The notes under the pieces are model-generated. The model made no database searches, was not told where the DNA came from, and worked only from the letters and a program-made list of their open reading frames with translations. Source: Sphaerochaeta sp. (GTDB lineage Bacteria > Spirochaetota > Spirochaetia > Sphaerochaetales > Sphaerochaetaceae). Taken from it: a stretch of DNA of 24,000 nucleotides. The stretch's first letter is position 1, and each line of letters starts with the position of its first letter. A program made the position numbers and the translations under genes. The stretch is from positions 45,256-69,255 of the forward strand of contig JBQNAT010000010.1 in the NCBI GenBank assembly GCA_052170315.1, read 5' to 3'. Positions 1,407-18,188 of the stretch are shown in pieces.

Positions 1407-1435
1407 TTGACAATAGTTGTCGTAAGTGATAAAAC
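1407..1435 (+). promoter_or_regulatory. Candidate sigma70-type promoter for the T-box operon (TTGACA - 17 nt - TAAAAC with upstream TG)
   Basis: TTGACA at 1407-1412, a 17-nt spacer, TGaTAAAAC at 1427-1435. A weaker alternative has -10 TATAAA at 1481-1486 with a poor -35 (TTCAGT, 1458-1463). No TSS data. Confidence 0.4.
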
Positions 1436-1442
1436 CAACGCA

Positions 1443-1481
1443 AATGTTAAACGCAATTCAGTTTGATTTGGGTTTAACATT
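1443..1481. repeat. Perfect 10-bp inverted repeat AATGTTAAAC-N19-GTTTAACATT between the promoter and T-box Stem I (candidate operator or 5' leader hairpin)
   Basis: 1443-1452 AATGTTAAAC is the exact reverse complement of 1472-1481 GTTTAACATT. It sits just downstream of the -10 at 1430-1435 and brackets the alternative promoter's -35. Confidence 0.6.
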
Positions 1482-1500
1482 ATAAAGGCTTTGACGAAGA

Positions 1501-1758
1501 CGGAGCGGGAAGATAGCAAAAGCGAACTGGGTACGGTGTGAGCCAGCTGCGAAGGGCCTGTAAACCTATCACTTCCGAGCCGGAGAAAGAAAGCACGCTG
1601 TGTGAGTAGAGATCTCCCGTGACTGCCGCGTAAGAGCATAAGGCTTGTTGGAGCCTGAGGGGCGCGAAAGCGCAATTTGAGTGGTACCGCGGGTACATAT
1701 CACAGACAGATATGCGGCTCGTCTCAAGGAAAGCAGTCTTTGGGACGGGCTTTTTTTT
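1501..1758 (+). promoter_or_regulatory. T-box riboswitch leader, probable Ile (AUC) specifier, with antiterminator/terminator switch
   Basis: T-box consensus AAUUUGAGUGGUACCGCG at 1674-1691. Stem I base has a GA/K-turn-like motif (CGGAGCG 1501-1507 vs GAGCCG 1577-1582) and helix GGAAG 1508-1512 : CUUCC 1572-1576. The triplet AUC (1568-1570) followed by A1571 lies immediately 5' of that helix, the position of the specifier codon plus conserved purine in characterised T-boxes. Antiterminator: GAG 1679-1681:CUC 1718-1720 and CCGC 1687-1690:GCGG 1714-1717 flank a UGGUA bulge. Its 3' strand overlaps the terminator 5' arm. Confidence 0.85.
1717..1758 (+). terminator. Intrinsic terminator of the T-box expression platform
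   Basis: 5' arm GCUCGUCUCAAGG (1717-1729) pairs with 3' arm CUUUGGGACGGGC (1738-1750), including G-U wobbles, around an 8-nt loop. A U8 run follows at 1751-1758. Confidence 0.8.
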
Positions 1759-1775: not shown

Positions 1776-4037
1776 GTGGATACTACAAAAACGCAGCTTC
1801 TGGAAGTTGCAGCGCGAATCAGGGAAATGCGGGAAATTCTGAGCCTGTCTCAGGAGGAAATGGCGCATAAGACGGATTTAAGTCTTTCCGAATATCAGAC
1901 TTATGAAAGGGGCGAGTGTGATCTTCCGTTTTCTTTCATTCACAAATGCGCAATGGCGTTCGGTATTGATATTACCGACCTTCTTGAAGGACATTCCACA
2001 CGGCTCACTTCCTATACCGTCACAAGACGCGGCCACGGTCACCAGACTGCCAAGGAGATGGGCATAGACATCCAGAATCTGGCTCCAAAATTCAAAAACA
2101 AAATTGCCGAGCCCTACTGGGTTAAATATGACTACTCCGAGGAGCTTCAGGGCAAACCTATCCAGCTTCAGACTCATGCCGGTCAGGAATTTGACATAAT
2201 CATAGAGGGCTCTCTGCTGGTACAGGTGGGCCTTAATAAGGAAGTTCTGCATGAGGGCGACTGCATTTACTACAAGTCTTCCACACCCCACGGAATGATT
2301 GCCATTGAAGGCCGTGACTGCCTGTTTGTGGCTGTAGTCCTTCCGGGCGAGGACGAAAGCGGCGACTCAAGCATTGCCGCGTCCCTTGCTCCAGTTCCTT
2401 CTACCAACAAGCTTGTCGCCAACAAATTCATAGAGTGCGCAGAAGACAAAAACGGCAGCCTGCAGGCCGTAAAATACAAAAATACTGAATCTTTTAACTT
2501 TGCATACGACATTGTTGACGCAATCGCGGATAAATATCCCGATAAGCTTGCGATGATACACCTTGACATAAACAAGTCGGTAAGGCGTTTTACCTTTATG
2601 GACATGAAGAAGGAAAGCGCACGGGTTGCGAACTACTTTGCAGCCTTGGGAATTGGCAAGGGCGATAAGGTAATGCTTGTTTTAAAAAGGCATTATCAGT
2701 TCTGGCCTGCAATTATAGCCCTTCATAAAATAGGAGCCGTAGCCATACCTGCAACCTACCAGCTTAGAGAGCATGACTTTATTTACAGGTTCAATTCCGC
2801 AGGTGTAAAGGCTATAGTCTGCACCGCTTCCGGAGACTGCGCGGAGATAGTGGACAGGGTACAGAGTCAGTGTCCGACGCTGGAGATTAAGATGCTGGTA
2901 AACGGGACGCGTGAAGGCTGGAGGGATTTCAACAGGGAATACCCGATGTTCAAGAGCTCTTTCAGGCGCGGCCCGGATACTCCTTGCGGAAATGACAGCG
3001 CTCTTATGTTCTTCTCTTCCGGCACAACCGGCAATCCCAAGATGGTTGAGCACAGGCATACCTACGCGCTGGCGCACTATGTCACTGCAAAATACTGGCA
3101 CTGCTGCCGGCCTGACGGCCTTCACTTTACAATTTCGGATACGGGCTGGGGCAAGTCCCTGTGGGGCAAGCTTTACGGGCAGTGGATGTGCGAAGGAGCG
3201 GTTTTTGTCTATGACTTTGACCGCTTCCACGCGGACGATATCCTGCCTCTGTTCGCCCAATATCATATAACTACCTTCTGCGCCCCGCCCACGATGCTCA
3301 GGATGATGGTCAAGGAAGACCTTTCAAAATACGATTTCTCTTCCGTAAAGCACATGACTACTGCAGGCGAAGCGCTGAATCCTGAAGTAGGCAGTCAGTT
3401 CTATAAGGCTACGGGTCTTGAGATATGCGAAGGCTTCGGACAGACGGAGACAACGCTTACCGTCGCGAATTTCGGCGGCAATGTCAAAATCGGTTCAATG
3501 GGCAAGGCGTCTCCTCAGTACAGTGTAATGCTTGTTGATAGTGACGGACTTCCCGTGGCTCCGGGTGAAGTGGGCGAGATTGCGATAGATATCTCCGGCG
3601 GCGCCCCGATAGGTCTTTTCACGGAGTACTACAGGGATAAGGAAAAGACGTCCGAGGTAATGCGCGGCGGTCTGTACCATACCGGTGATACCGCATGGCA
3701 GGATGAGGACGGCTATTTTTTCTATGTTGGCCGCGTTGACGACATTATCAAGTCTTCCGGTTACAGGATAGGGCCTTTCGAGGTCGAGTCCGTAATAATG
3801 GAGCTTCCATATGTGCTTGAGTGCGGAGTTTCGGCTACTCCCGACCCTGTAAGAGGACAGGTTGTAAAGGCCTCTATAGTACTTACACGGGGTACGGAGC
3901 CCAGCGAAAAGCTCAAAACGGATATACAGGACTATGTGAAAACACATACTGCGCCGTACAAATACCCGCGTCAGGTGGTTTTCAGGGATGAACTTCCCAA
4001 GACCGTAAGCGGAAAAATAATCAGAAGCGCCCTTTAG
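1776..4037 (+). CDS. Tri-domain fusion: XRE-family HTH + cupin sensor domain + medium-chain (MACS/ACSM-like) AMP-forming acyl-CoA synthetase
   Basis: GTG at 1776 lies 6 nt after GGAGG (1765-1769) and just after the terminator; the ORF-track start at 1677 lies inside the T-box. HTH: LSLSQEEMAHKTDLSLSEYQTYERGE. Cupin: THAGQEFDIIIEG...GDCIYYKSSTPHG. ACS domain: FNFAYDIVD, FFSSGTTGNPKMVEH, EGFGQTETT, YHTGDTAWQDEDGYFFYVGRVDDIIKSSGYRIGPFEVES, PKTVSGKIIR. The frame is continuous, with no internal start or RBS at the junction. Confidence 0.85.
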   Translation: MDTTKTQLLEVAARIREMREILSLSQEEMAHKTDLSLSEYQTYERGECDLPFSFIHKCAMAFGIDITDLLEGHSTRLTSYTVTRRGHGHQTAKEMGIDIQNLAPKFKNKIAEPYWVKYDYSEELQGKPIQLQTHAGQEFDIIIEGSLLVQVGLNKEVLHEGDCIYYKSSTPHGMIAIEGRDCLFVAVVLPGEDESGDSSIAASLAPVPSTNKLVANKFIECAEDKNGSLQAVKYKNTESFNFAYDIVDAIADKYPDKLAMIHLDINKSVRRFTFMDMKKESARVANYFAALGIGKGDKVMLVLKRHYQFWPAIIALHKIGAVAIPATYQLREHDFIYRFNSAGVKAIVCTASGDCAEIVDRVQSQCPTLEIKMLVNGTREGWRDFNREYPMFKSSFRRGPDTPCGNDSALMFFSSGTTGNPKMVEHRHTYALAHYVTAKYWHCCRPDGLHFTISDTGWGKSLWGKLYGQWMCEGAVFVYDFDRFHADDILPLFAQYHITTFCAPPTMLRMMVKEDLSKYDFSSVKHMTTAGEALNPEVGSQFYKATGLEICEGFGQTETTLTVANFGGNVKIGSMGKASPQYSVMLVDSDGLPVAPGEVGEIAIDISGGAPIGLFTEYYRDKEKTSEVMRGGLYHTGDTAWQDEDGYFFYVGRVDDIIKSSGYRIGPFEVESVIMELPYVLECGVSATPDPVRGQVVKASIVLTRGTEPSEKLKTDIQDYVKTHTAPYKYPRQVVFRDELPKTVSGKIIRSAL

Positions 4038-4057
4038 GGCTTTTGACGGGAGTAAAA

Positions 4058-4849
4058 ATGAAGATTTCGTGCATTCAGATGGACATGAAATTTGCCTCAC
4101 CAAAAGAGAACTTCGAAAAAGCCGAAACGCTTATACGTAAGGCTGCTTCTTTCGGTCTCGATACGGTTCTGCTTCCCGAAACATGGAACGTCGGCTTTTT
4201 TCCAAGGGAAAACCTTTATGCCCTTGCGGACAGGGACGGAGCCGAAGTCCGGCGTGTTTTCTCCTCATTGGCAGAGGAACTTGGGATAAACATAGTCGCG
4301 GGAAGCGTAGCGAATATTAAGGACGGCGGAGTATACAACACAGCTCTTGTCTTTGACAGAAGCGGCAGGTGCGCTGCGGAGTATGATAAAACCCATCTTT
4401 TTTCACCTATGGATGAGGATAGGTACTTTAAAAAAGGAGAACATGCCTGTGTCTTTGAACTTGACGGGCGCAGGTGCGGCCTTATCATCTGTTATGATGT
4501 GCGTTTTCCTGAGTTTACAAGGACAATGGCGGTACAGGGCATTGACATTCTTTTCATGGTATCGCAGTGGCCTCTTGCAAGGGTTGCCCATCTTGATGCT
4601 CTTACAAAGGCAAGGGCAATAGAGAACCAGATGTTTGTTGTCTGCTGTAATTCGGCAGGAAAAGCGGGCGATACCGTTTACGGCGGAGCTTCTTCCATAA
4701 CCGACCCATGGGGAGTAACGATAGCTCATGCGGAAGGTCATGGTGAAGAAATTATAACGGCGGAATGTAATATGGACATTCTAAATGGAATAAGAAACAG
4801 CATAAACGTCTTCTTTGACAGAAGACCGGAACTGTACGGAGTAAACTGA
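4058..4849 (+). CDS. Carbon-nitrogen hydrolase (nitrilase superfamily), omega-amidase (YafV/MtnU/Nit2)-like
   Basis: ATG at 4058 lies 5 nt after GGGAG (4048-4052); the track's TTG at 4043 is less likely. Glu-Lys-Cys triad contexts: LPETWN, YDKTHLF, GLIICYDVRFPE. About 263 aa, typical of small Nit-branch amidases. Confidence 0.8.
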   Translation: MKISCIQMDMKFASPKENFEKAETLIRKAASFGLDTVLLPETWNVGFFPRENLYALADRDGAEVRRVFSSLAEELGINIVAGSVANIKDGGVYNTALVFDRSGRCAAEYDKTHLFSPMDEDRYFKKGEHACVFELDGRRCGLIICYDVRFPEFTRTMAVQGIDILFMVSQWPLARVAHLDALTKARAIENQMFVVCCNSAGKAGDTVYGGASSITDPWGVTIAHAEGHGEEIITAECNMDILNGIRNSINVFFDRRPELYGVN

Positions 4850-4873
4850 TTTTTTTAGGCAAAGGAGATATTT

Positions 4874-5968
4874 ATGGACTACAATTTTCCGGTTACAAGG
4901 ACAACACATCCCAGGCCTAGGCCTCAGGACCAGACAAAGCTGGGATTCGCGAAGTATTTCACGGACCACATGTTCTGCATGGATTGGGATGAAGGACAGG
5001 GCTGGCACGACGGAAGAGTTGTTCCTCACGAGGCTATCCTGATAGAGCCCGCGTCCTGCGTTCTTCACTATGCGCAGATGATGTTTGAAGGTATGAAGGC
5101 ATACAGGACGGCAAAAGGAGAAATCCAGATTTTCAGGCCCGACATGAATGTCAGAAGGATGGCAAGAACCAACGAAAGAATGTGCATTCCGGAGCTTCCG
5201 GGAGACATACTTCTTGCAGGTATAAAGGCCGTCATCAAGGAAGACATTGACTGGGTGCCTACGGCTCAGGGAACGGCGCTTTATATCAGGCCGTTTATCT
5301 TCGGAGATGAGGTTTCCTTCTCCGTTCTTCCTGCAAAGCATTACAGATTCATGATAATCCTTTCTCCTACAGGCTCGTACTATGCTGCAAACGACGGAGG
5401 ACTTTCCGCGACAAGAATATATGTGCAGGATAAGTACATCCGTGCGGCGAAGGGCGGCACAGGCTATGCCAAGGTGGGCGGCAACTACGGCGGAGGCATG
5501 AGAGCCAGCCAGGACGCTATGAAATACGACTGCAAAGATGTACTATGGCTTGATGCGGCGGAGCATAAATATGTAGAAGAAATCGGAACCTCCAACGCCT
5601 TCTTCGTTCTTAACGATGAAGTTATAACAGCGCCGCTGGATTCCGAGACAATTCTTCCGGGCATCACAAGAGATTCTGTAATAAGGTTGCTGAAGAAGTG
5701 GGGAGTGAAGGTAACGGAAAGAAAGCTTTCCATTGATGAAATAATGGAAGGAAGCCGAAGCGGTGCCCTTAAGGAAATATTCGCTTCCGGTACCGCCGCT
5801 GTAATTTCCCCTATAGGCACACTTTGCGTAAAGGGCAGCGACTACACTGTAGGTGACGGGAAAGTGGGGCCGATTGCCCAAAAGCTTTACGACAACATTT
5901 ACGGTATGCAGACCGGTAAGATTGAAGACTACATGGGCTGGATTTACAAACTGGGGCTTAAAGCGTGA
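4874..5968 (+). CDS. ilvE: Branched-chain amino acid aminotransferase (fold-type IV, long ~360-aa form)
   Basis: RBS AAAGGAGA lies upstream of ATG 4874. N-terminal LGFAKYFTDHMF signature, PLP-lysine context GGTGYAKVGGNYG, length 364 aa. Confidence 0.9.
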   Translation: MDYNFPVTRTTHPRPRPQDQTKLGFAKYFTDHMFCMDWDEGQGWHDGRVVPHEAILIEPASCVLHYAQMMFEGMKAYRTAKGEIQIFRPDMNVRRMARTNERMCIPELPGDILLAGIKAVIKEDIDWVPTAQGTALYIRPFIFGDEVSFSVLPAKHYRFMIILSPTGSYYAANDGGLSATRIYVQDKYIRAAKGGTGYAKVGGNYGGGMRASQDAMKYDCKDVLWLDAAEHKYVEEIGTSNAFFVLNDEVITAPLDSETILPGITRDSVIRLLKKWGVKVTERKLSIDEIMEGSRSGALKEIFASGTAAVISPIGTLCVKGSDYTVGDGKVGPIAQKLYDNIYGMQTGKIEDYMGWIYKLGLKA

Positions 5969-6609
5969 AGAGGCTTTCACTTTTCTGCGGACACTACGGC
6001 AGCGGGAAAACCAACCTTGCCGTGAATTACGCTCTTTATCTTCGGAAGCTGGGTTTGGAGGTAACAATAGCCGATTTGGATATTGTTAATCCGTATTTCA
6101 GGTCAAAGGACAGTTTTGAGACCCTTGAAGCCGAGGGCGTTAAGGTCATTGCCCTGCCGTTCGCAAACAGCAGCGTGGACCTTCCCGCCCTGCCAAGCGG
6201 GGCCTATGCTCTTGTTCAGGATAAAAGCCGCTATGCCGTTTTGGACATAGGCGGCGATGACAGAGGAGCATATGCCCTTGGGCGTTTTGTTCCTTATATC
6301 CTTGAAGAAAACAACTATGACATGTTCTATGTTGTCAACTTCTACAGACCTCTTACATCAAACGCAAAAGAGGCTATGGAAGTGATGAGGGAAATTGAAG
6401 GCGCCTGCGGACTTGAGTTTACAGGTATCATCAACAATTCCAATCTTGGGGCGGAAACCACGGCGGAGAAGATACGCTTTACCTTTCCTGAGGCGGAACG
6501 GCTTTGCGGTCTTTCGGGACTTCCGCTTACCGCGGTAACGGCAGAAGAGAGCGCGGCGGAAGGCGCAATGGTGAAAATAAAGCTTCAAAAGCGTCCCTTT
6601 GAGGTCTGA
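5965..6609 (+). CDS. Uncharacterised P-loop NTPase (SIMIBI/MinD-ParA-CobQ-like ATP-binding protein)
   Basis: GTG start overlaps the ilvE stop (GTGA, 4-nt overlap), implying translational coupling. Walker A GHYGSGKT at residues 9-16; Walker B-like VLDIGGDD. No recognisable catalytic domain beyond the NTPase fold. Confidence 0.65.
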   Translation: MKRLSLFCGHYGSGKTNLAVNYALYLRKLGLEVTIADLDIVNPYFRSKDSFETLEAEGVKVIALPFANSSVDLPALPSGAYALVQDKSRYAVLDIGGDDRGAYALGRFVPYILEENNYDMFYVVNFYRPLTSNAKEAMEVMREIEGACGLEFTGIINNSNLGAETTAEKIRFTFPEAERLCGLSGLPLTAVTAEESAAEGAMVKIKLQKRPFEV

Positions 6610-6655
6610 GAGACGGAAATTAAAGGAATTTGATTCTTCAAAAGAGGTGAGCTGT

Positions 6656-6862
6656 ATGGCGAAAGTAACATTCAACGAAGACATTTGTAAGGGGTGCGGA
6701 CTATGTATTGACGCATGTCCCCGGCACATACTCGCGCTTGATAAAAACAAGATTAACAGGAAGGGACATAACCCTGCCGTGATTACCGAGCAGTCTAAAT
6801 GCATAGCCTGCGCCTTTTGCGCTGTAATGTGTCCTGACTGTGTGATAACCGTGGAGAAGTGA
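6656..6862 (+). CDS. 2x[4Fe-4S] ferredoxin-type delta subunit of 2-oxoacid:ferredoxin oxidoreductase
   Basis: ATG 6656 is preceded by AGAGGTGA; the track start at 6599 is rejected. Two CxxCxxCxxxCP motifs (CKGCGLCIDACP, CIACAFCAVMCP). 68 aa, ending 1 nt before the alpha subunit. Confidence 0.85.
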   Translation: MAKVTFNEDICKGCGLCIDACPRHILALDKNKINRKGHNPAVITEQSKCIACAFCAVMCPDCVITVEK

Positions 6863-6863
6863 T

Positions 6864-7931
6864 ATGACAGAAAAAGTTTTGATGAAAGGAAACGAAGCCA
6901 TTGCCGAAGCCGCCCTTAGAGCGGGTTGCCGTCATTATTTCGGTTATCCGATAACTCCGCAGACGGAGCTTACAGCCTATATGGCAAAGCGTCTTCCAAA
7001 GTTGGAAGGCGGTGTTTTCCTTCAGGCGGAAAGCGAGGTCAGCGCAATAAACATGGTTTACGGCGCATCCGGCGCGGGAAAGAGAGTCATGACAAGCTCA
7101 TCTTCCCCGGGGATATCGCTTAAACAGGAAGGCATTTCCTATATTGCCGGAGCGGATCTTCCCGCAGTGATAGTAAACGTCCAAAGAGGCGGTCCGGGTC
7201 TGGGAGGAATCCAGCCGTCACAGTCCGACTATTTCCAGGCAACCAAGGGCGGCGGACACGGAGACTATCATCTTATAGTACTGACTCCAAGCTCCGTTCA
7301 GGAAATGGCTGATTTGACAAGCCTTGCCTTTGATCTTGCAGATAAGTACCGCTGTCCGACAATGCTGCTTGCAGACGGGACAATGGGACAGATGATGGAG
7401 CCGGTACTGCTTCCCGAACCTCATTGCTCAGCTGTTGCCAAGCCGTGGGCGCTTACCGGAACCGGAATGAAGAGAGAGCACAACGTCATAAATTCACTTT
7501 ATCTTGTACCTGAGGTGCTGGAAAAAATGAACCTTGAACGCTTCGAACGCTATAAAGAAATTGAGGAAAACGAAGTCCGCTTTGAAAGCTATCTTATGAA
7601 TGACGCGGACTACTGCCTTGTAGCCTTCGGTATTGCTGCCCGTGTAGCCAAGAATGCCATAACAATTATGAGAAAAGACGGTATTAAGGCAGGTCTGATA
7701 AGACCTATTACTGTTTGGCCGTTCCCGAAGAAGGCTATCAGTGAAGCAGCAAAAAAAGTCAAAGGCTTTGTAAGTGTTGAGCTTTCAATGGGGCAGATGA
7801 TAGAAGACGTCAAGCTTGCGGAAGAGTGCCTTCGTCCCGTAGCTCTATGCAGAAGAGTCGGCGGAATGATTCCCGGCGTTGACCAGATAATTGACGTAAC
7901 AAAAAAACTGGCGGAAGGAGGCGTGCGATAA
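6864..7931 (+). CDS. 2-oxoacid:ferredoxin oxidoreductase alpha subunit (VorB/KorA-type)
   Basis: N-terminus KGNEAIAEAALRAGCRHYFGYPITPQTE is characteristic of OFOR alpha subunits. 355 aa, in a delta-alpha-beta-gamma set. Confidence 0.9.
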   Translation: MTEKVLMKGNEAIAEAALRAGCRHYFGYPITPQTELTAYMAKRLPKLEGGVFLQAESEVSAINMVYGASGAGKRVMTSSSSPGISLKQEGISYIAGADLPAVIVNVQRGGPGLGGIQPSQSDYFQATKGGGHGDYHLIVLTPSSVQEMADLTSLAFDLADKYRCPTMLLADGTMGQMMEPVLLPEPHCSAVAKPWALTGTGMKREHNVINSLYLVPEVLEKMNLERFERYKEIEENEVRFESYLMNDADYCLVAFGIAARVAKNAITIMRKDGIKAGLIRPITVWPFPKKAISEAAKKVKGFVSVELSMGQMIEDVKLAEECLRPVALCRRVGGMIPGVDQIIDVTKKLAEGGVR

Positions 7932-8683
7932 TGGCCGTTGTTTTTCAGAAACCGAAAAGTCTTACATCCAAAGAGATGCATTACTGCCCGGGCTGCCCTC
8001 ACGGGATTATCCACAGGCTTGTGGCGGAGGCTATTGACAGCCTTGGCATAGAAGGAAAAACCGTAGGCGTTGCCCCTGTAGGCTGTGCGGTTCTTGCATA
8101 CGATTATTTTACCTGCGATATGGTTGAAGCGGCTCACGGAAGAGCCCCGGCAGTTGCGACGGGTCTTAAAAGAGCCTTGCCTGAAAATATTGTTTTCACT
8201 TATCAGGGCGACGGGGATCTTGCCTCAATAGGTATGGCTGAAACAGTCCACGCGGCTACCAGAAACGAGAATATCACAATCATTTTCGTTAATAACGCCA
8301 TTTACGGAATGACAGGCGGCCAGATGGCGCCCACTTCGCTTCCGGGTCAGATAACTCAGACATCTCCATACGGACGTGACGTGAAAACCGCCGGTTATCC
8401 GATACGTGTATGCGAGATGCTTGCCGCCCTTGATGCTCCTTACTATATTGAGCGCGTTGCCGTGAACAGCGTGAAGAACGTCCTGAAAGCAAAAAAAGCC
8501 GTTGAGAAGGCCTTCCGCAATCAGGTCGAGGGCAAGGGCTTCTCTCTGATAGAGCTGATTTCGGCCTGTCCTACAAACTGGGGACTTACGCCTGCAAAGG
8601 CGCTTGAATGGGTAAAAGATAAGATGATTCCTTACTATCCGCTTGGGGTTTTCAGGGACAAAGATACGGAGGCGGCGAAATGA
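7931..8683 (+). CDS. 2-oxoacid:ferredoxin oxidoreductase beta subunit (TPP-binding)
   Basis: Start overlaps the alpha stop by 1 nt (TAATG). HYCPGCPHG cysteine motif and TPP-binding GDGD...NNAIYGMTGGQ. Confidence 0.9.
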   Translation: MAVVFQKPKSLTSKEMHYCPGCPHGIIHRLVAEAIDSLGIEGKTVGVAPVGCAVLAYDYFTCDMVEAAHGRAPAVATGLKRALPENIVFTYQGDGDLASIGMAETVHAATRNENITIIFVNNAIYGMTGGQMAPTSLPGQITQTSPYGRDVKTAGYPIRVCEMLAALDAPYYIERVAVNSVKNVLKAKKAVEKAFRNQVEGKGFSLIELISACPTNWGLTPAKALEWVKDKMIPYYPLGVFRDKDTEAAK

Positions 8684-9210
8684 CTACACAGATTCTTATA
8701 GCAGGCTTCGGAGGACAGGGTATTCTGTTTTCAGGAAAACTTCTTGCGTACAAGGCGCTTTCAGAAGGAAAAGAGCTTTCATGGCTGCCTTCCTACGGAC
8801 CTGAAATGAGAGGCGGCACAGCCTCCTGCTCCGTAACGGTAAGCGATGAACCTGTAGGTTCTCCTATTATTGACCATCCTGATGTGCTTATAGTTATGAA
8901 CCTTCCGTCTTTAGACAGATATGAGGACTCAGTAAAGCCCGGAGGCATGATTTTCGTGGATTCCAGCCTTGTTGAAAGAAAGGTGAAGAGAACAGACGTA
9001 AAAGCTTTTTACATACCCGCAACCAGGCTTGCTCAGGATATGGGCGCAGGAAACCTTGCCAACATAGTCCTTCTTGGAAAAGTCATGAAAGACTGTTCTG
9101 CGGTTTCAGGAAACGGACTTGAAGAGGCTCTTCGCAAGGTTGTTTCCGCAAAGCACCCCGAAATGTATGAAATTAATCTTAAGGCCATTGAAACCGGGTA
9201 TAGCTACTGA
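8680..9210 (+). CDS. 2-oxoacid:ferredoxin oxidoreductase gamma subunit
   Basis: ATGA overlap with the beta stop. ILIAGFGGQGILFSGKLLA N-terminus is typical of OFOR gamma domains. 176 aa. Confidence 0.9.
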   Translation: MTTQILIAGFGGQGILFSGKLLAYKALSEGKELSWLPSYGPEMRGGTASCSVTVSDEPVGSPIIDHPDVLIVMNLPSLDRYEDSVKPGGMIFVDSSLVERKVKRTDVKAFYIPATRLAQDMGAGNLANIVLLGKVMKDCSAVSGNGLEEALRKVVSAKHPEMYEINLKAIETGYSY

Positions 9211-9248: not shown

Positions 9249-10874
9249 GTGAGTTTTAATGTTGAAGATGCGATGAAACTTCCTTCCATGAAGGGCGCCA
9301 GGCTTGCCGCGGGACAGAACGGCGTTAAATCAAACATTCTGGCCGTTACGGTTTTTGAATACAAAGGTTCAAAAGACCTTCAGAACAGGTTCATGGCTTT
9401 AAATTCCGGAAAACTTAACGGTAAGCTTGTTCTTGCAAGCTTCGCGTCAATGGAGAGAGATACGGAGCTTCAGCGAAGATGTCTGGAGTATATGGCAAAA
9501 GGGGGAGCTTCCGCTCTTGTCCTTTATTATGTAGGCGTTATTCTTAAAGAAGTAGGCAGAAGCCTTAAAGATACTGCGGATTCCCTGTCTCTGCCCGTTA
9601 TTGTAATGCCTGAAAACAAGCTGGATATTGGTTATGACGCTCTTATTTCGGAAGTATCGGAATCCGTGCTGACAGCGGGCGCAGATTATAACGAAAATCT
9701 TGCCACGGAAATAATCGGTCAGGTTTCAAAGCTGCCTGCCGACAAACAGACAGTAGATTCGGTTTTAAATCTTCTAAGTTCAAAGCTTAATGCCGGTATA
9801 ATACTTACAGACGGCAGTCTTAATAATCTTGGGGAGTCCTTTAAAGGCGGAATTTCTGTTCAGGGTGTCCTGAACGAAGAAAATGTCCCTCATCATATAA
9901 AACGCAAAAAGGCTTTCGCCCCGGTTCCCGGCAGTTTTATATGGTATGCCCCTATACATGACAGAGGCGTTGAGCCCATGAGGCTCTTCCTTATTGAAGA
10001 CGGAAATTCTCTTAATGAGATGCGTGTAGATATGGCCCGCGCCGCAGTTCAGCTTGCTGTGGAACTTTGGAGCAACAGCCACAGCGAGGTTTTGACATCG
10101 GAACTTGTTAAAGCAATCCTCAATGACGAACCAATAAGGATGAGAAGGCTGAGCGAAGTGCTGCGCATTGATATCAAGTCCATCCACAACTCCTGGTTCA
10201 TACGCTGTACCGACGGAAGAAGTCATTTTTCCTATGAAATGATAAAGGCTGTCAGGGATGTTATGAACAATCTTGATTCCGAGATACTTCTGGAATCCTA
10301 CAGACCCACGCCGGGCAATTCGGATGACCTGATAATGTTTTTCAGAAATCCGCTGGATGCAAAGCTTCTGAATAACTGCGCGCGCTCTATAATTGAAAAT
10401 CTCCACGGCCTTGGCTGCAATCATGTTTATCTTACCATGCTGGATTACAAGTTCACTACCGCAGATGTGAGAAATGCCTTTTCCATATGGAATGAGAACG
10501 AGGCTAAGGCCAGAACCGTTTTCCCCGCTCTTGAAATATTTCACGAATCTGAAATAGAGCTTGCAAGACAGTGCGATGCGATAATAAAGCTTGGGGAAGC
10601 AAGCATAGCTTCCGCAACCGACTGTCTGTACGCGCTTGAAGAGCGACACGGCTCGGAAGAGTTTTTAAAAACGCTTGAAGTTTACTTCCTTGACGCGGAC
10701 ATGAACATGCAGAAGGCCTCCGAGATTCTGGGTGTTCATAAAAATACAATAAAGTACAGGATAAATATTGTATGCGACGCGCTTGGTCATTCCGTAAATA
10801 ATCCTGTTACAACCTCTCGTCTTACCATAGCGCTTGCAATCAGGCGTCTGCTTGATAAGGCAGGCGCAATTTAA
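9249..10874 (+). CDS. PucR/CdaR-family transcriptional regulator
   Basis: GTG 9249 lies 6 nt after GGAGG (9238-9242). N-terminal PucR-like domain (LPSMKGARLAAGQNGVKSNILAVTVFE). C-terminal PucR-type HTH (MQKASEILGVHKNTIKYRINIVCDALG). Confidence 0.8.
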   Translation: MSFNVEDAMKLPSMKGARLAAGQNGVKSNILAVTVFEYKGSKDLQNRFMALNSGKLNGKLVLASFASMERDTELQRRCLEYMAKGGASALVLYYVGVILKEVGRSLKDTADSLSLPVIVMPENKLDIGYDALISEVSESVLTAGADYNENLATEIIGQVSKLPADKQTVDSVLNLLSSKLNAGIILTDGSLNNLGESFKGGISVQGVLNEENVPHHIKRKKAFAPVPGSFIWYAPIHDRGVEPMRLFLIEDGNSLNEMRVDMARAAVQLAVELWSNSHSEVLTSELVKAILNDEPIRMRRLSEVLRIDIKSIHNSWFIRCTDGRSHFSYEMIKAVRDVMNNLDSEILLESYRPTPGNSDDLIMFFRNPLDAKLLNNCARSIIENLHGLGCNHVYLTMLDYKFTTADVRNAFSIWNENEAKARTVFPALEIFHESEIELARQCDAIIKLGEASIASATDCLYALEERHGSEEFLKTLEVYFLDADMNMQKASEILGVHKNTIKYRINIVCDALGHSVNNPVTTSRLTIALAIRRLLDKAGAI

Positions 10875-11383: not shown

Positions 11384-12757
11384 TTATTTATATTTTTCTG
11401 AAATCTCTCTTGCCACAAATACGCCGCTTGCGGAGGCATGTGAAAGAGAGTGCGTAACTCCGCTTCCGTCTCCTATCATGTACAGGCCCTTATATTTTGT
11501 TTCCAGATGCCTGTCAACCTTTACTTCCATGTTGTAGAACTTGACTTCAACGCCGTACAGCAGAATATCGTCGTTTGCCGTACCCGGGGCAATGCGGTCA
11601 AGGGCATGTATCATTTCTATTATGCCATCAAGGATTCGTTTTGGCAGAACAAGGCTTAAATCTCCCGGTTCGGCCTGAAGGGTGGGACGAACAAAGCTTT
11701 CTTCAATTCGTTTCCTGTTGCTGCGCCTTCCTCTGATAAGGTCCCCGAAGCGCTGTACAATTACTCCGCCGCCAAGCATGTTTGAAAGCCTTGCGATGCC
11801 TTCGCCATAGCCGTTGCTGTCCTTGAAAGGCTCGGTAAAATGCTTGGAAACAAGAAGCGCGAAGTTTGTATTTTCGGTTCTCCGGGACGAATCTTCAAAG
11901 CTGTGTCCGTTTACGGTAACTATGCCGTTGGTGTTTTCGTTTACAACTATACCATAAGGGTTCATGCAGAAGGTGCGCACGTTGTCTTCAAACTTTTCAG
12001 TTCTGTAAACTATCTTGCTTTCATAAAGGCTGTCCGTCAGGTGCGAAAAAATCTCTGCCGGAAGCTCAACCCTTACTCCTATATCCACTCTGTTTGAAAG
12101 CGTTTCTATGTCAAGCTCCCTGCAGATTTCTTCCACCCACTTGCTTCCGCTGCGTCCTACGGAAACTATGCAGTGCTTGCATTCAAAAGTTTCATTGTCA
12201 GTGACTGCCTTGAAACCGCCGTCTATAACTTCAATCTTTCTTACAGGGTCACGGAAAACAAAATGAATTTTGTCTTTCATTTTCCTGTAGAGGTTCTGAA
12301 GTACAACATAGTTTTTGTCCGTACCAAGATGCCTTACGGACGCGTCAAGGAGCTTGAGCTTGTTCTGCATGCACAGTCTCTTTATATCCGAGCCTGCGGT
12401 GGAGTAGAGTTTTGTGCCTTCGCCGCCGTGTGTCATGTTGATATGGTCAACATACTCCATAAGCTCCGTGGCCTGCTGTTTCCCTATGTATTCGCACAAA
12501 GTTCCGCCAAAGTCGTTTGTTATGTTGTATTTACCGTCCGAGAACGCGCCGGCGCCTCCGAAGCCCGACATTATGGAGCAGGTTTTGCAGTTTATGCAGG
12601 ATTTGATTTTAACACCGTCTATGGGACATTTTCTCTTTTCAAGGGGATTGCCCATTTCTATTACGGCGATATTAAGCTTCGGGCTGCTCTTCATAAGTTC
12701 ATAGGCAGAGAATATTCCGCCGGGACCCGCCCCAATGATTATAACATCGTACCTCAT
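11384..12757 (-). CDS. FAD/NAD(P)-binding oxidoreductase (COG2509-like uncharacterised FAD-dependent dehydrogenase)
   Basis: N-terminal Rossmann motif MRYDVIIIGAGPGG and cysteine-rich insert KCPIDGVKIKSCINCKTCS. 457 aa. No Shine-Dalgarno sequence upstream. Confidence 0.7.
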   Translation of the reverse strand: MRYDVIIIGAGPGGIFSAYELMKSSPKLNIAVIEMGNPLEKRKCPIDGVKIKSCINCKTCSIMSGFGGAGAFSDGKYNITNDFGGTLCEYIGKQQATELMEYVDHINMTHGGEGTKLYSTAGSDIKRLCMQNKLKLLDASVRHLGTDKNYVVLQNLYRKMKDKIHFVFRDPVRKIEVIDGGFKAVTDNETFECKHCIVSVGRSGSKWVEEICRELDIETLSNRVDIGVRVELPAEIFSHLTDSLYESKIVYRTEKFEDNVRTFCMNPYGIVVNENTNGIVTVNGHSFEDSSRRTENTNFALLVSKHFTEPFKDSNGYGEGIARLSNMLGGGVIVQRFGDLIRGRRSNRKRIEESFVRPTLQAEPGDLSLVLPKRILDGIIEMIHALDRIAPGTANDDILLYGVEVKFYNMEVKVDRHLETKYKGLYMIGDGSGVTHSLSHASASGVFVAREISEKYK

Positions 12758-17192: not shown

Positions 17193-18188
17193 TCAAAGAA
17201 GCCCGACTCTCTTTTTTGCCCTGTTAAGTGTTCTGAGCGATACTGAAAGGGCGGTCTGCGCTCCGTTTTGCGCAACTTCGTCAAGATAGGCTTTATCTGC
17301 GCTGTAGCGTTTGTAGTTCTCCCTTATGGGGCGCAATGCGTCCGCAACCGTTTCGCCTACGGCAAGCTTGAAGTCCCCGTAGCCCCTGCCTTCAAATTCC
17401 GCTTCCGTTTCCGCGGTGCTTTTCCCTGTTGTTACGGAGTATATCGTAATCAGGTTGTTAATTCCGTCTTTGCCTTCTCTGAAAACAATTTCCTTTTCAC
17501 TGTCCGTTACCGCGCGCCTGAATTTGCTTATGATTACATCAGGCTCGTCAAGTATGGATATGAAAGCGTTCGCGTTTTCATCCGACTTTGACATTTTCTT
17601 AAGAGGGTCCTGGAGAGACATGACCTTTGCGCCGGCAGCCGGTATGTAGGGCTCAGGCACTTTGAAAGTCTGACCGTAAAGGTTATTGAAACGCTCCGCT
17701 ATGTCTCTTGTGAACTCCAGATGCTGCTTTTGGTCAACCCCGACCGGAACCATATCCGCCTGATACAGAAGAATATCCGCCGCCATGAGAACGGGGTAGG
17801 TGAAAAGAGCGGCATTTACGTTGTCGGCATGTCTTGCCGCTTTGTCCTTGAACTGGGTCATGCGTGAAAGGTCTCCGAATTGGGCAATGCCTGAAAGTAT
17901 CCAGGAAAGCTCCGTATGGGTATGGACTTGGCTCTGGATAAAAACCAGACTCTTTTTCGGGTCTATCCCGCAGGCCAGAAGGAGCGCAATGGCTTCGTAG
18001 CGTCTTTTTCTGAGATTAGACGGTTCCTGGCGCACGGTAAGAGAATGGAGATCCGCTATAAAATAAGCACAGTCGTAGTTGTCCTGCATTCTTCCCCAGT
18101 TCTTTACGGCTCCAATGTAATTTCCAAGTGTGAAAATGCCTGTAGGCTGGATACCGCTGAGGATGATTTTCTTTTTTTCCGCTTCCAT
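17193..18188 (-). CDS. trpS: Tryptophan--tRNA ligase
   Basis: Class I aaRS motifs GIQPTGIFTLGNYIG (HIGH-type region) and KMSKS. 331 aa, with GGAG-type RBS (AAAGGAGCG) upstream. Confidence 0.95.
   Translation of the reverse strand: MEAEKKKIILSGIQPTGIFTLGNYIGAVKNWGRMQDNYDCAYFIADLHSLTVRQEPSNLRKRRYEAIALLLACGIDPKKSLVFIQSQVHTHTELSWILSGIAQFGDLSRMTQFKDKAARHADNVNAALFTYPVLMAADILLYQADMVPVGVDQKQHLEFTRDIAERFNNLYGQTFKVPEPYIPAAGAKVMSLQDPLKKMSKSDENANAFISILDEPDVIISKFRRAVTDSEKEIVFREGKDGINNLITIYSVTTGKSTAETEAEFEGRGYGDFKLAVGETVADALRPIRENYKRYSADKAYLDEVAQNGAQTALSVSLRTLNRAKKRVGLL

Follow-up and report, generated by a model that had tools for sequence, protein, structure and literature searches.

We analysed a 24-kb window of Sphaerochaeta sp. 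DNA (the whole stretch of 24,000 nucleotides (nt)), in which an RNA leader at about positions 1482–1758 stands ahead of an eight-gene operon. An initial annotation, made from the sequence alone, had read this leader as a T-box riboswitch with an isoleucine (AUC) specifier codon, placed before a regulator–enzyme fusion. As described below, the leader is a genuine full-length class I transcriptional T-box, and the operon most likely makes isoleucine from 2-methylbutyrate by reductive carboxylation. The leader and the region immediately upstream of it contain the following features.

1407–1435, plus strand: probable promoter (−35 TTGACA at 1407–1412; 17-nt spacer with TG at 1427–1428; −10 TAAAAC at 1430–1435)
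1443–1481, plus strand: inverted repeat or hairpin between promoter and Stem I, with 18-nt arms AATGTTAAACGCAATTCA / TGATTTGGGTTTAACATT, 89% complementary
1488–1580, plus strand: Stem I, from the covariance-model alignment and covariation in 78 leaders
1568–1571, plus strand: specifier AUC (Ile; codon at 1568–1570) and the purine A1571, in the specifier columns of the covariance model
1583–1616, plus strand: Stem II, with GAAA...AGUA internal loop sequences of the S-turn type, from the covariance-model alignment
1618–1638, plus strand: Stem IIA (1618–1620:1628–1630) and the IIB pseudoknot (UGC 1624–1626 with GCA 1636–1638)
1641–1656, plus strand: extra hairpin AGGCU-UGUUGG-AGCCU between IIA/B and Stem III, outside the Rfam consensus
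1662–1673, plus strand: Stem III, GCGC-GAAA-GCGC, from the covariance-model alignment
1674–1691, plus strand: T-box sequence AAUUUGAGUGGUACCGCG, from the sequence and the covariance model, essentially invariant in 78 leaders
1678–1726, plus strand: antiterminator (helix A1, 7-nt bulge, helix A2, inner hairpin at 1696–1714)
1716–1758, plus strand: intrinsic terminator (15-bp stem 1716–1730:1737–1751, loop AAGCAG, U8 run at 1751–1758)

The Rfam covariance model for T-boxes (RF00230), used in E-value mode, matches positions 1482–1729 along its full length (model positions 1–219) with 49.3 bits. The E-value was 5.6e-10 in a search of a 421-nt region and 3.2e-8 in a search of the whole window, and this is the only match with E <0.01 across the 24 kb. 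The scan proposed in the initial annotation thus gave a match significant by E-value, though one below the gathering score, a point to which we return.

We compared the leader with its orthologues. One genome per species was scanned with the N-terminal 318 residues of the fusion protein encoded by the first gene of the operon, which gave at least 599 matches; the loci of the best 80 were examined, 79 of them with enough upstream sequence. These best 80 matches are almost all from gut or rumen Clostridia (Acutalibacteraceae, Christensenellaceae, Oscillospiraceae, Ruminococcus). A T-box core was found ~100 nt upstream of the fusion gene in 77 of the 79 assessable clostridial loci; in the other two the fusion gene directly follows an upstream ligase gene. 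The structure of the window's leader was then projected onto an alignment of 78 orthologous leaders, to which the counts for single helices below refer, and pairing partners slid by 1–3 columns served as controls. Standard pairs were formed by 86.2% of cells, versus 32–47% in the slid controls; 27 pairs had changed on both sides in a compensatory manner, and none of 500 shuffles reached the observed values. Together with the full-length RF00230 match, this covariation bears out the reading as a T-box riboswitch.

The same T-box also precedes the same operon in loci L001–L004, with RF00230 scores of 54.6–58.4 bits. Three contigs of Spirochaetales or Sphaerochaetaceae metagenome-assembled genomes (MAGs) carry the same eight-gene module in different flanks, with a T-box containing AUCA-CUUCC-GAGC.

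Stem I has the kink-turn (K-turn) and the specifier loop with codon plus purine that characterize T-box leaders (GC-UUUGAC-GAAG ... CUUC-CGA-GC). Its base helix GC:GC (1488–1489:1579–1580) is followed by the K-turn, made of UUUGAC (1490–1495) and CGA (1576–1578), and by the helix GAAG:CUUC (1496–1499:1572–1575), which is paired in 100% of the leaders and shows an AU to GC compensatory change in three; the helices flanking the K-turn are both 100% paired, with compensatory changes. Because UUUGAC and GAAG lie upstream of 1501, where the leader had been taken to begin, the true start is some 15–20 nt further upstream, at ~1482–1488. The segment AUC-A-CUUCC-GAGCC is present at 1568–1581 as described, but the helix GGAAG:CUUCC derived from it has to be redrawn, with CUUC 1572–1575 pairing with GAAG 1496–1499 instead. 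We rejected GGAAG 1508–1512 as the partner, as it lies in a variable region, whereas GAAG 1496–1499 is always paired.

The distal part of Stem I is that of a T-box platform. The AG bulge AGCGA (1521–1525) aligns to the AGAGA columns of the model and the distal loop GUACGGUGUGAG (1531–1542) to the GGUGNNA columns, both sets of columns being invariant or nearly so, and the distal helix CUGG:CCAG (1527–1530:1543–1546) is 99% paired with three covarying pairs. Stem II, the IIA/B pseudoknot and Stem III, the other hallmarks of T-box leaders, are all found. The basal helix of Stem II is 95% paired and all four of its pairs covary; Stem IIA is 98% paired, and the IIB pseudoknot 95%, with two covarying pairs. 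For Stem III the MAFFT column counts are uninformative, the stem being variable in length; in RNAfold predictions the window's leader and each of the 21 sister leaders that we inspected form a hairpin there. The extra hairpin is 98.5% paired, with covariation at five of five pairs and a conserved loop sequence, UUGUUGG; four leaders of the spirochaete lineage show a compensatory change in it (GGCU:AGCC versus GGGU:ACCC). It is found in most of the valine- and leucine-class leaders described below as well, and is a feature specific to this clade.

Upstream of the leader, positions 1407–1435 are probably the promoter, by analogy with the TTGACAAA / TGnTAnAAT promoter that precedes 60+ orthologous leaders at a constant spacing. 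A consensus promoter scanner made no call at 1407–1435, since the −10 element ends in C. The inverted repeat at 1443–1481 lengthens the window's leader by ~30 nt relative to its orthologues; it is absent from L001 and L002 and from the clostridial leaders, and is conserved in no related locus. The repeat may fold as a hairpin in the RNA or serve as a site for a protein.

The near-canonical T-box sequence AAUUUGAGUGGUACCGCG stands where the initial annotation had placed it and takes part in an antiterminator of canonical form. Helix A1 is UGAG:CUCA (1678–1681:1723–1726; 100% paired in the orthologues), helix A2 is GCGGG:CUCGU (1689–1693:1718–1722; 93% paired), and the 7-nt bulge between them is UGGUACC (1682–1688). 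The pairings GAG:CUC and CCGC:GCGG suggested earlier did not hold up. The CCGC:GCGG register was rejected: it gives −5.2 to −7.6 kcal/mol, versus −11.4 to −15.7 for the canonical fold, and its partner lies in a non-conserved stretch. Evaluated on 1674–1758, the antiterminator has −11.4 kcal/mol (RNAfold of 1674–1730 alone returns the same fold, with −15.7), and the terminator −22.8, or −27.4 with the inner hairpin. The terminator is 88.8% paired, with eight covarying pairs. The two structures are mutually exclusive, because CUCGUCUCA (1718–1726), the 3′ strand of the antiterminator, also lies within the 5′ arm of the terminator. The leader thus has a T-box sequence with a UGGN bulge, in an antiterminator that excludes a terminator with a U-tract. 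This exclusion had been correctly predicted, together with the U8 run, and we measured the terminator stem at 15 bp. The energies of the two conformers, a comparison that had been proposed, show the terminator to be the more stable, which makes OFF the default state.

The identity of the specifier was read from the alignment to the covariance model, in which the specifier columns hold AUC-A. AUC is invariant in 78 of 78 orthologous leaders, as is the UGGU of the bulge (1682–1685). The neighbouring positions vary: the −1 frame is CAU in 47 leaders and UAU in 29, and the base after the codon is A in 46, C in 29 and G in 3. A73 is the discriminator base of tRNA-Ile, tRNA-Val and tRNA-Leu and fits UGGU, in agreement with the predicted compatibility of the bulge with tRNA-Ile. 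The position of AUC also agrees with the rule of the T-box database TBDB, according to which the specifier lies 2–4 nt from the 3′ end of the specifier bulge.

TBDB also takes the frames at ±1 into account, and the switch might in principle read another tRNA through a shifted specifier: UAU or CAU at −1, a serine codon UCN at +1, or CUA at −2. The +1 frame is indeed always a serine codon (UCA in 46 leaders, UCC in 29, UCG in 3). However, its third base, and hence the isoacceptor, varies, and no spacer nucleotide would be left between this codon and the helix; tRNA-Ser, moreover, is established to have G73, which would require UGGC and not the invariant UGGU. The −1 and −2 frames are not conserved, which tells against CUA and UAU, the two shifted triplets named in the initial annotation. 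In the sister leaders the +1 frame reads UAG or UCG, which makes no sense, whereas the canonical frame reads valine and leucine codons matching the paralogous genes. We therefore regard a shifted specifier as extremely improbable, and on sequence grounds assign the leader the specifier AUC, isoleucine, as claimed initially.

The sister leaders just mentioned lie in the same clostridial loci, up to three related T-boxes per locus (L005–L083; for example L007:12309–12599, L007:19314–19604 and L063:4580–4870). They share the flank ...CUUC[CU]GAGC and differ in the specifier triplet, by which they fall into three classes.

ATC (Ile): followed by the window-type ligase fusion, paralogue A
GTA or GTC (Val): followed by the helix-turn-helix (HTH)–cupin–ligase paralogue B, an oxidoreductase and IlvE
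CTC or CTG (Leu): followed by a LeuA-like gene and a third ligase fusion

The units of the valine class carry TTGACA promoters of their own, and in those of the leucine class the LeuA-like gene is accompanied by AP_endonuc_2–AMP-ligase and Amidohydro_2 genes. Judging by these sequences, the T-box was duplicated, with its specifier switching among isoleucine, valine and leucine in step with the downstream genes. Since the paralogous triplets track the paralogous genes, they confirm the specifier assignment. One T-box, at L029:~12350–12640 before P-loop and oxidoreductase genes, has GCA-U at the specifier, which may be a misalignment or another specificity.

The operon that follows the leader consists of eight genes, the last three of which encode subunits of one enzyme.

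1776–4037, plus strand: HTH–cupin–acyl-CoA ligase fusion of 753 amino acids (aa) (HTH_XRE at residues 13–72, Cupin_2 at 129–187, AMP-forming acyl-CoA ligase at 250–747)
4058–4849, plus strand: carbon–nitrogen hydrolase, omega-amidase-like (open reading frame opens with TTG 4043; likely start ATG 4058)
4874–5968, plus strand: branched-chain aminotransferase IlvE, type II (NF009897, 444 bits; cut-off 307)
5965–6609, plus strand: CbiA/ParA-like P-loop protein, from domain search
6656–6862, plus strand: 4Fe-4S ferredoxin, delta subunit (ATG 6656; orthologues of 68 aa)
6864–9210, plus strand: 2-oxoacid:ferredoxin oxidoreductase (alpha/VorB 6864–7931; beta/thiamine pyrophosphate (TPP) 7931–8683; gamma 8680–9210)

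The fusion gene starts at GTG 1776, after a ribosome-binding site, GGAGGGG, at 1765–1771. The initial annotation had dismissed a 786-aa open reading frame here as an artefact; this is true of its 5′ extension, which is spurious, but the real gene lies inside it. The gaps before the hydrolase gene are too short to hold another attenuator. The hydrolase matches best the YafV-type amidohydrolase family. IlvE exceeds the curated equivalog cut-off of TIGR01123 (359 versus 250 bits) as well as that of NF009897, and the alpha subunit matches VorB (NF005507) with 542 bits, against a cut-off of 399; with the beta (TPP), gamma and ferredoxin subunits adjacent, the enzyme is of the VorB type. The P-loop protein has no NCBIfam match; in this cluster its gene stands ahead of those for the ferredoxin and the oxidoreductase without exception, in Clostridia and spirochaetes alike. 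It could be a maturation or coupling factor. The statement that the T-box stands ahead of a fusion rather than of an aminoacyl-tRNA synthetase or classical ilv gene is thus correct for the first gene, but with ilvE and a VorB-type oxidoreductase the operon does fall within isoleucine metabolism.

Among 100 NCBIfam families, the ligase matches best MbcS, with 429 bits, and the closest solved structure to its ligase domain (residues ~231–753) is MacsMa (PDB 3ETC, E 2.9e-184). Both MbcS and MacsMa have been reported to prefer 2-methylbutyrate. The window's fusion protein is also closer to the isoleucine-linked paralogue A (68% identity) than to the valine-linked paralogue B (63%). From these relatives and the isoleucine specifier, the enzyme is probably a 2-methylbutyrate–CoA ligase. 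AMP-forming ligases work in the direction of activation. In rumen fermentation, 2-methylbutyrate, isobutyrate and isovalerate are known precursors of isoleucine, valine and leucine, respectively.

In the proposed pathway, the ligase domain would convert exogenous 2-methylbutyrate to 2-methylbutyryl-CoA, which the VorB-type oxidoreductase, with ferredoxin, would reductively carboxylate to 3-methyl-2-oxopentanoate; IlvE would then aminate the latter to isoleucine. The omega-amidase-like hydrolase may draw glutamine-dependent transamination forward, as its pairing with IlvE suggests. The hydrolase and an IlvE of the window type (4058–5968) co-occur in L001–L004, L006, L032, L042, L067 and L074.

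The switch would control this pathway as follows. By default the leader would fold as the terminator (1716–1751 and U8), and transcription would halt. When isoleucine is scarce, uncharged tRNA-Ile(GAU) is expected to bind the leader at three points: its anticodon would pair with AUC 1568–1570 in the specifier loop of Stem I, its elbow would dock onto the distal platform, and its free A73-CCA end would pair with UGGU 1682–1685. These contacts would stabilise the antiterminator (1678–1726) and let RNA polymerase enter the operon (1776–9210).

The direction of the pathway deserves consideration. The T-box may be real and specific to isoleucine, and the operon may nevertheless supply 2-methylbutyryl-CoA, the primer of anteiso fatty acids, or ferment branched-chain amino acids; IlvE and the oxidoreductase would then run oxidatively, and the ligase would be a parallel salvage enzyme, like MbcS of Staphylococcus aureus. 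MbcS, the ligase's best family match, does feed the supply of membrane-lipid primers, and IlvE and 2-oxoacid:ferredoxin oxidoreductases are established to be reversible and are used oxidatively by amino-acid fermenters. However, induction by uncharged tRNA-Ile would then drain an amino acid that is already scarce, and a switch that turns on with uncharged tRNA-Ile is sensible only in the isoleucine-making direction. The surveyed targets of T-boxes are aminoacyl-tRNA synthetase, biosynthesis or uptake genes, which raise the supply of the cognate charged tRNA. Furthermore, three amino-acid-specific switches on three ligase modules fit amino-acid supply better, as does the adjacent omega-amidase-like hydrolase, which fits amination pulled toward the amino acid. 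We thus consider lipid-primer supply or fermentation unlikely. As an isoleucine-supply operon, the cluster shows ordinary T-box logic.

Several observations weigh against the joint reading of a tRNA-Ile-specific class I T-box and an operon making isoleucine from 2-methylbutyrate. In a scan of the window with Rfam gathering scores, no RF00230 match reaches the curated 93 bits, the leader having 49.3; this is why standard annotation misses it. The clostridial orthologues score 86–93 bits in the isoleucine and valine classes and 116–123 bits in the leucine class, so that the clade as a whole straddles the cut-off. The 5′ side of the specifier loop (1500–1504) has ACGG where the consensus has the S-turn motif AGUA. 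A GG:CC mini-helix may take the place of the S-turn: G1502–G1503 can pair with C1565–C1566 (GC/GC in 62 leaders, G-U in six, and one A-U compensatory change), which would make the specifier loop very compact, and this pair is conserved with little covariation. A search of the 24-kb window found no tRNA gene, and we presume a cognate tRNA-Ile with the A73 usual in this tRNA. The ligase fails the equivalog cut-off of MbcS (429 versus 850 bits). Finally, in most clostridial loci the oxidoreductase and IlvE genes sit behind the valine T-box and not the isoleucine T-box, so that one switch governs the whole pathway only in the spirochaete arrangement and in a minority of clostridial loci. Weighing these points against the architecture, conservation and covariation of the RNA, the invariant specifier and the gene families of the operon, we give the joint reading a probability of about 0.78.

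Two neighbours of the operon may be related to it. A gene for a PucR-type regulator (9249–10874) begins 38 nt after the gamma subunit gene, with no convincing terminator between them, and has the same place in L001 (18915–20540). In the spirochaete lineage this regulator may add another level of control to the cluster. Upstream, positions 74–1381 encode the C-terminal part of a fusion of AP_endonuc_2 (a xylose-isomerase-like TIM barrel) and AMP-ligase. In Clostridia the AP_endonuc_2–AMP-ligase stands behind the leucine T-box with the LeuA-like gene; in L001 the pair follows a MarR gene, with no T-box.

We also considered how a T-box came to lie in this genome, as a 2008 survey found none in six spirochaete genomes. 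A spirochaete is an unusual host for the unit of T-box and fusion gene, which is spread over hundreds of clostridial genomes from gut and rumen. The fusion protein is 99% identical to a protein of a 'Spirochaetales bacterium' MAG and 77–85% identical to those of further Spirochaetales and Sphaerochaetaceae MAGs, so named in several independent submissions; the taxon names of MAGs are the submitters' labels of metagenome bins, and mis-binning is possible. The gene order of the window (fusion, hydrolase, IlvE, P-loop, ferredoxin, oxidoreductase) is that of L006 and L032 without their valine T-box and paralogue B. This shared order, with the overwhelmingly clostridial distribution, points to a joint transfer, in which switch and operon would have been acquired together from gut clostridia. 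A base-composition profile of the window shows no distinct island at the operon, and thus gives no compositional support for a recent transfer. Elsewhere in the window, TrpS (17193–18188, minus strand) is 100% identical to a protein of a 'Sphaerochaeta sp.' MAG, and its next relatives, at 77–79%, are from Lachnospiraceae, a pattern that could reflect either many clostridial-type genes in this genome or uncertain binning.

If the leader came in with the operon, it could be a decaying relic, with expression constitutive or under the control of the HTH–cupin module or the PucR-type regulator. Its RF00230 score is the lowest of the clade (49 bits versus 86–123 in Clostridia), T-boxes were not found in the spirochaetes surveyed, and the trpS gene of the window has no T-box leader in the RF00230 scan. 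However, all the functional elements of the leader (K-turn, AUC-A, distal platform motifs, pseudoknot, UGGUACC, terminator and U8) are intact, and the four leaders of the spirochaete lineage have diverged and yet retain their pairing through compensatory changes. In addition, the operon would be silenced if its stable terminator were not countered by a working antiterminator. Decay is therefore very unlikely in our view, and we keep to a functional switch.

The first gene of the operon had also been said to carry a DNA-binding domain, which is correct: the Pfam domains HTH_19 (35.0 bits, cut-off 30.2), HTH_3 (27.5, cut-off 23.0) and Cupin_2 (37.9, cut-off 27.2) are all above their cut-offs, as is AMP-binding, so that an XRE-type HTH is fused with a cupin and the AMP-forming ligase. 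The XRE-type HTH followed by a cupin is the architecture of XRE–cupin transcription factors. In a model of the N-terminal 318 residues, the predicted local distance difference test score (pLDDT) was 79–94 for the HTH and 66–85 for the cupin, and the best fold match in PDB was 1Y9Q (E 1e-12). However, HppE, HEPD and MPnS, enzymes with HTH-like and cupin domains and no regulatory function, match almost as well. A PDB sequence search with the HTH–cupin module returned one marginal HTH match only. A crude k-mer and visual search for operators in 69 upstream regions found only promoter hexamers (TTGACAAA and the extended −10) and no conserved palindrome; a binding site may lie elsewhere. 'Regulator–enzyme fusion' is thus apt as a description of domains, and as a statement of function it is putative.

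Within this family the fusion is the rule, and the HTH–cupin module is present in paralogue B as well; this recurrence argues that the fusion is not an assembly artefact. Fusion proteins down to 44% identity all retain H134, E138 and H172 of the cupin, and we take the spacing of these residues to resemble a 2-His-1-carboxylate metal site. It is possible, though we suggest it only tentatively and think it less probable than not by some distance, that the fusion is a trigger enzyme, with an HTH that binds DNA and a cupin that responds to the amino acid, the branched acid or the acyl-adenylate. Isoleucine synthesis would then be doubly gated, within a so far undescribed but widespread gut and rumen regulon of three specifier-switched T-boxes, from which the module would have crossed from Clostridia to spirochaetes. 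If so, the T-box, with uncharged tRNA-Ile, would gate the pathway according to demand and the fused sensor according to the availability of substrate or product, and the isoleucine, valine and leucine T-boxes would each license a dedicated branched-acid ligase.

The specifier acts as a built-in label that ties a widespread, unannotated cluster (at least 599 matches in species-level genomes) to isoleucine supply and, by extension, its paralogues to valine and leucine. It thereby offers testable gene assignments for a process that has long been known and is genetically ill-defined, in which anaerobes of rumen and gut turn branched fermentation acids into branched-chain amino acids. The case also illustrates that a T-box clade at or under the Rfam threshold escapes routine annotation, and suggests that a T-box can move together with its operon to a phylum in which an earlier survey found none. 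For the XRE–cupin module, whose fusion to the ligase is conserved, the candidate roles are those of regulator, allosteric sensor and metal site. Our search of the open-access literature returned no prior account of a T-box in connection with a ferredoxin oxidoreductase, an acyl-CoA synthetase, 2-methylbutyrate or Sphaerochaeta.

Compared with known systems, the leader is closest to the class I T-boxes of Firmicutes (RF00230; isoleucine-specific ileS and ilv-leu). It shares with them the Stem I K-turn, the specifier codon plus purine and the distal platform, as well as Stem II, the IIA/B pseudoknot, Stem III, the 14-nt T-box sequence with UGGN and the exclusive antiterminator and terminator. 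Like other isoleucine-specific T-boxes, it has the usual AUC specifier, with the preference for C in the third position, and a target that would raise isoleucine supply. It differs from Firmicutes T-boxes in the score below the gathering threshold, the conserved extra hairpin and the non-consensus 5′ side of the specifier loop. Its host is a Sphaerochaeta-like spirochaete, in contrast to the Firmicutes and Actinobacteria of known T-boxes, and its target is a route of acyl-CoA ligase, ferredoxin oxidoreductase and IlvE, instead of an aminoacyl-tRNA synthetase, ilvBNC-leu or a transporter.

The ligase domain is like those of MacsMa of Methanosarcina acetivorans and MbcS of S. aureus. Unlike these, the window's protein adds ~230 N-terminal residues of HTH_XRE and cupin and is encoded in a T-box amino-acid operon, whereas MbcS feeds lipid synthesis. 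The HTH–cupin module has the same two-domain architecture as the XRE–cupin factors ErfA, PsdR and PauR (template 1Y9Q), whose family comprises locally acting repressors, each sensing a precursor of a pathway and located beside the enzymes under its control. In contrast to them, it is covalently fused to an enzyme, with no conserved operator found at the promoter. As a whole, the gene set gives the same activation, ferredoxin-dependent carboxylation and transamination as the reductive carboxylation of branched-chain volatile fatty acids in rumen and gut. That route has been defined physiologically, and we infer here its tie to this gene cluster and to amino-acid-specific T-boxes. The T-box mechanism itself is ordinary; what is new is the host phylum, the RNA features specific to the clade (the extra covarying hairpin and the compact specifier loop) and the target, a route for the salvage of branched acids in which paralogous ligases stand under amino-acid-specific switches.

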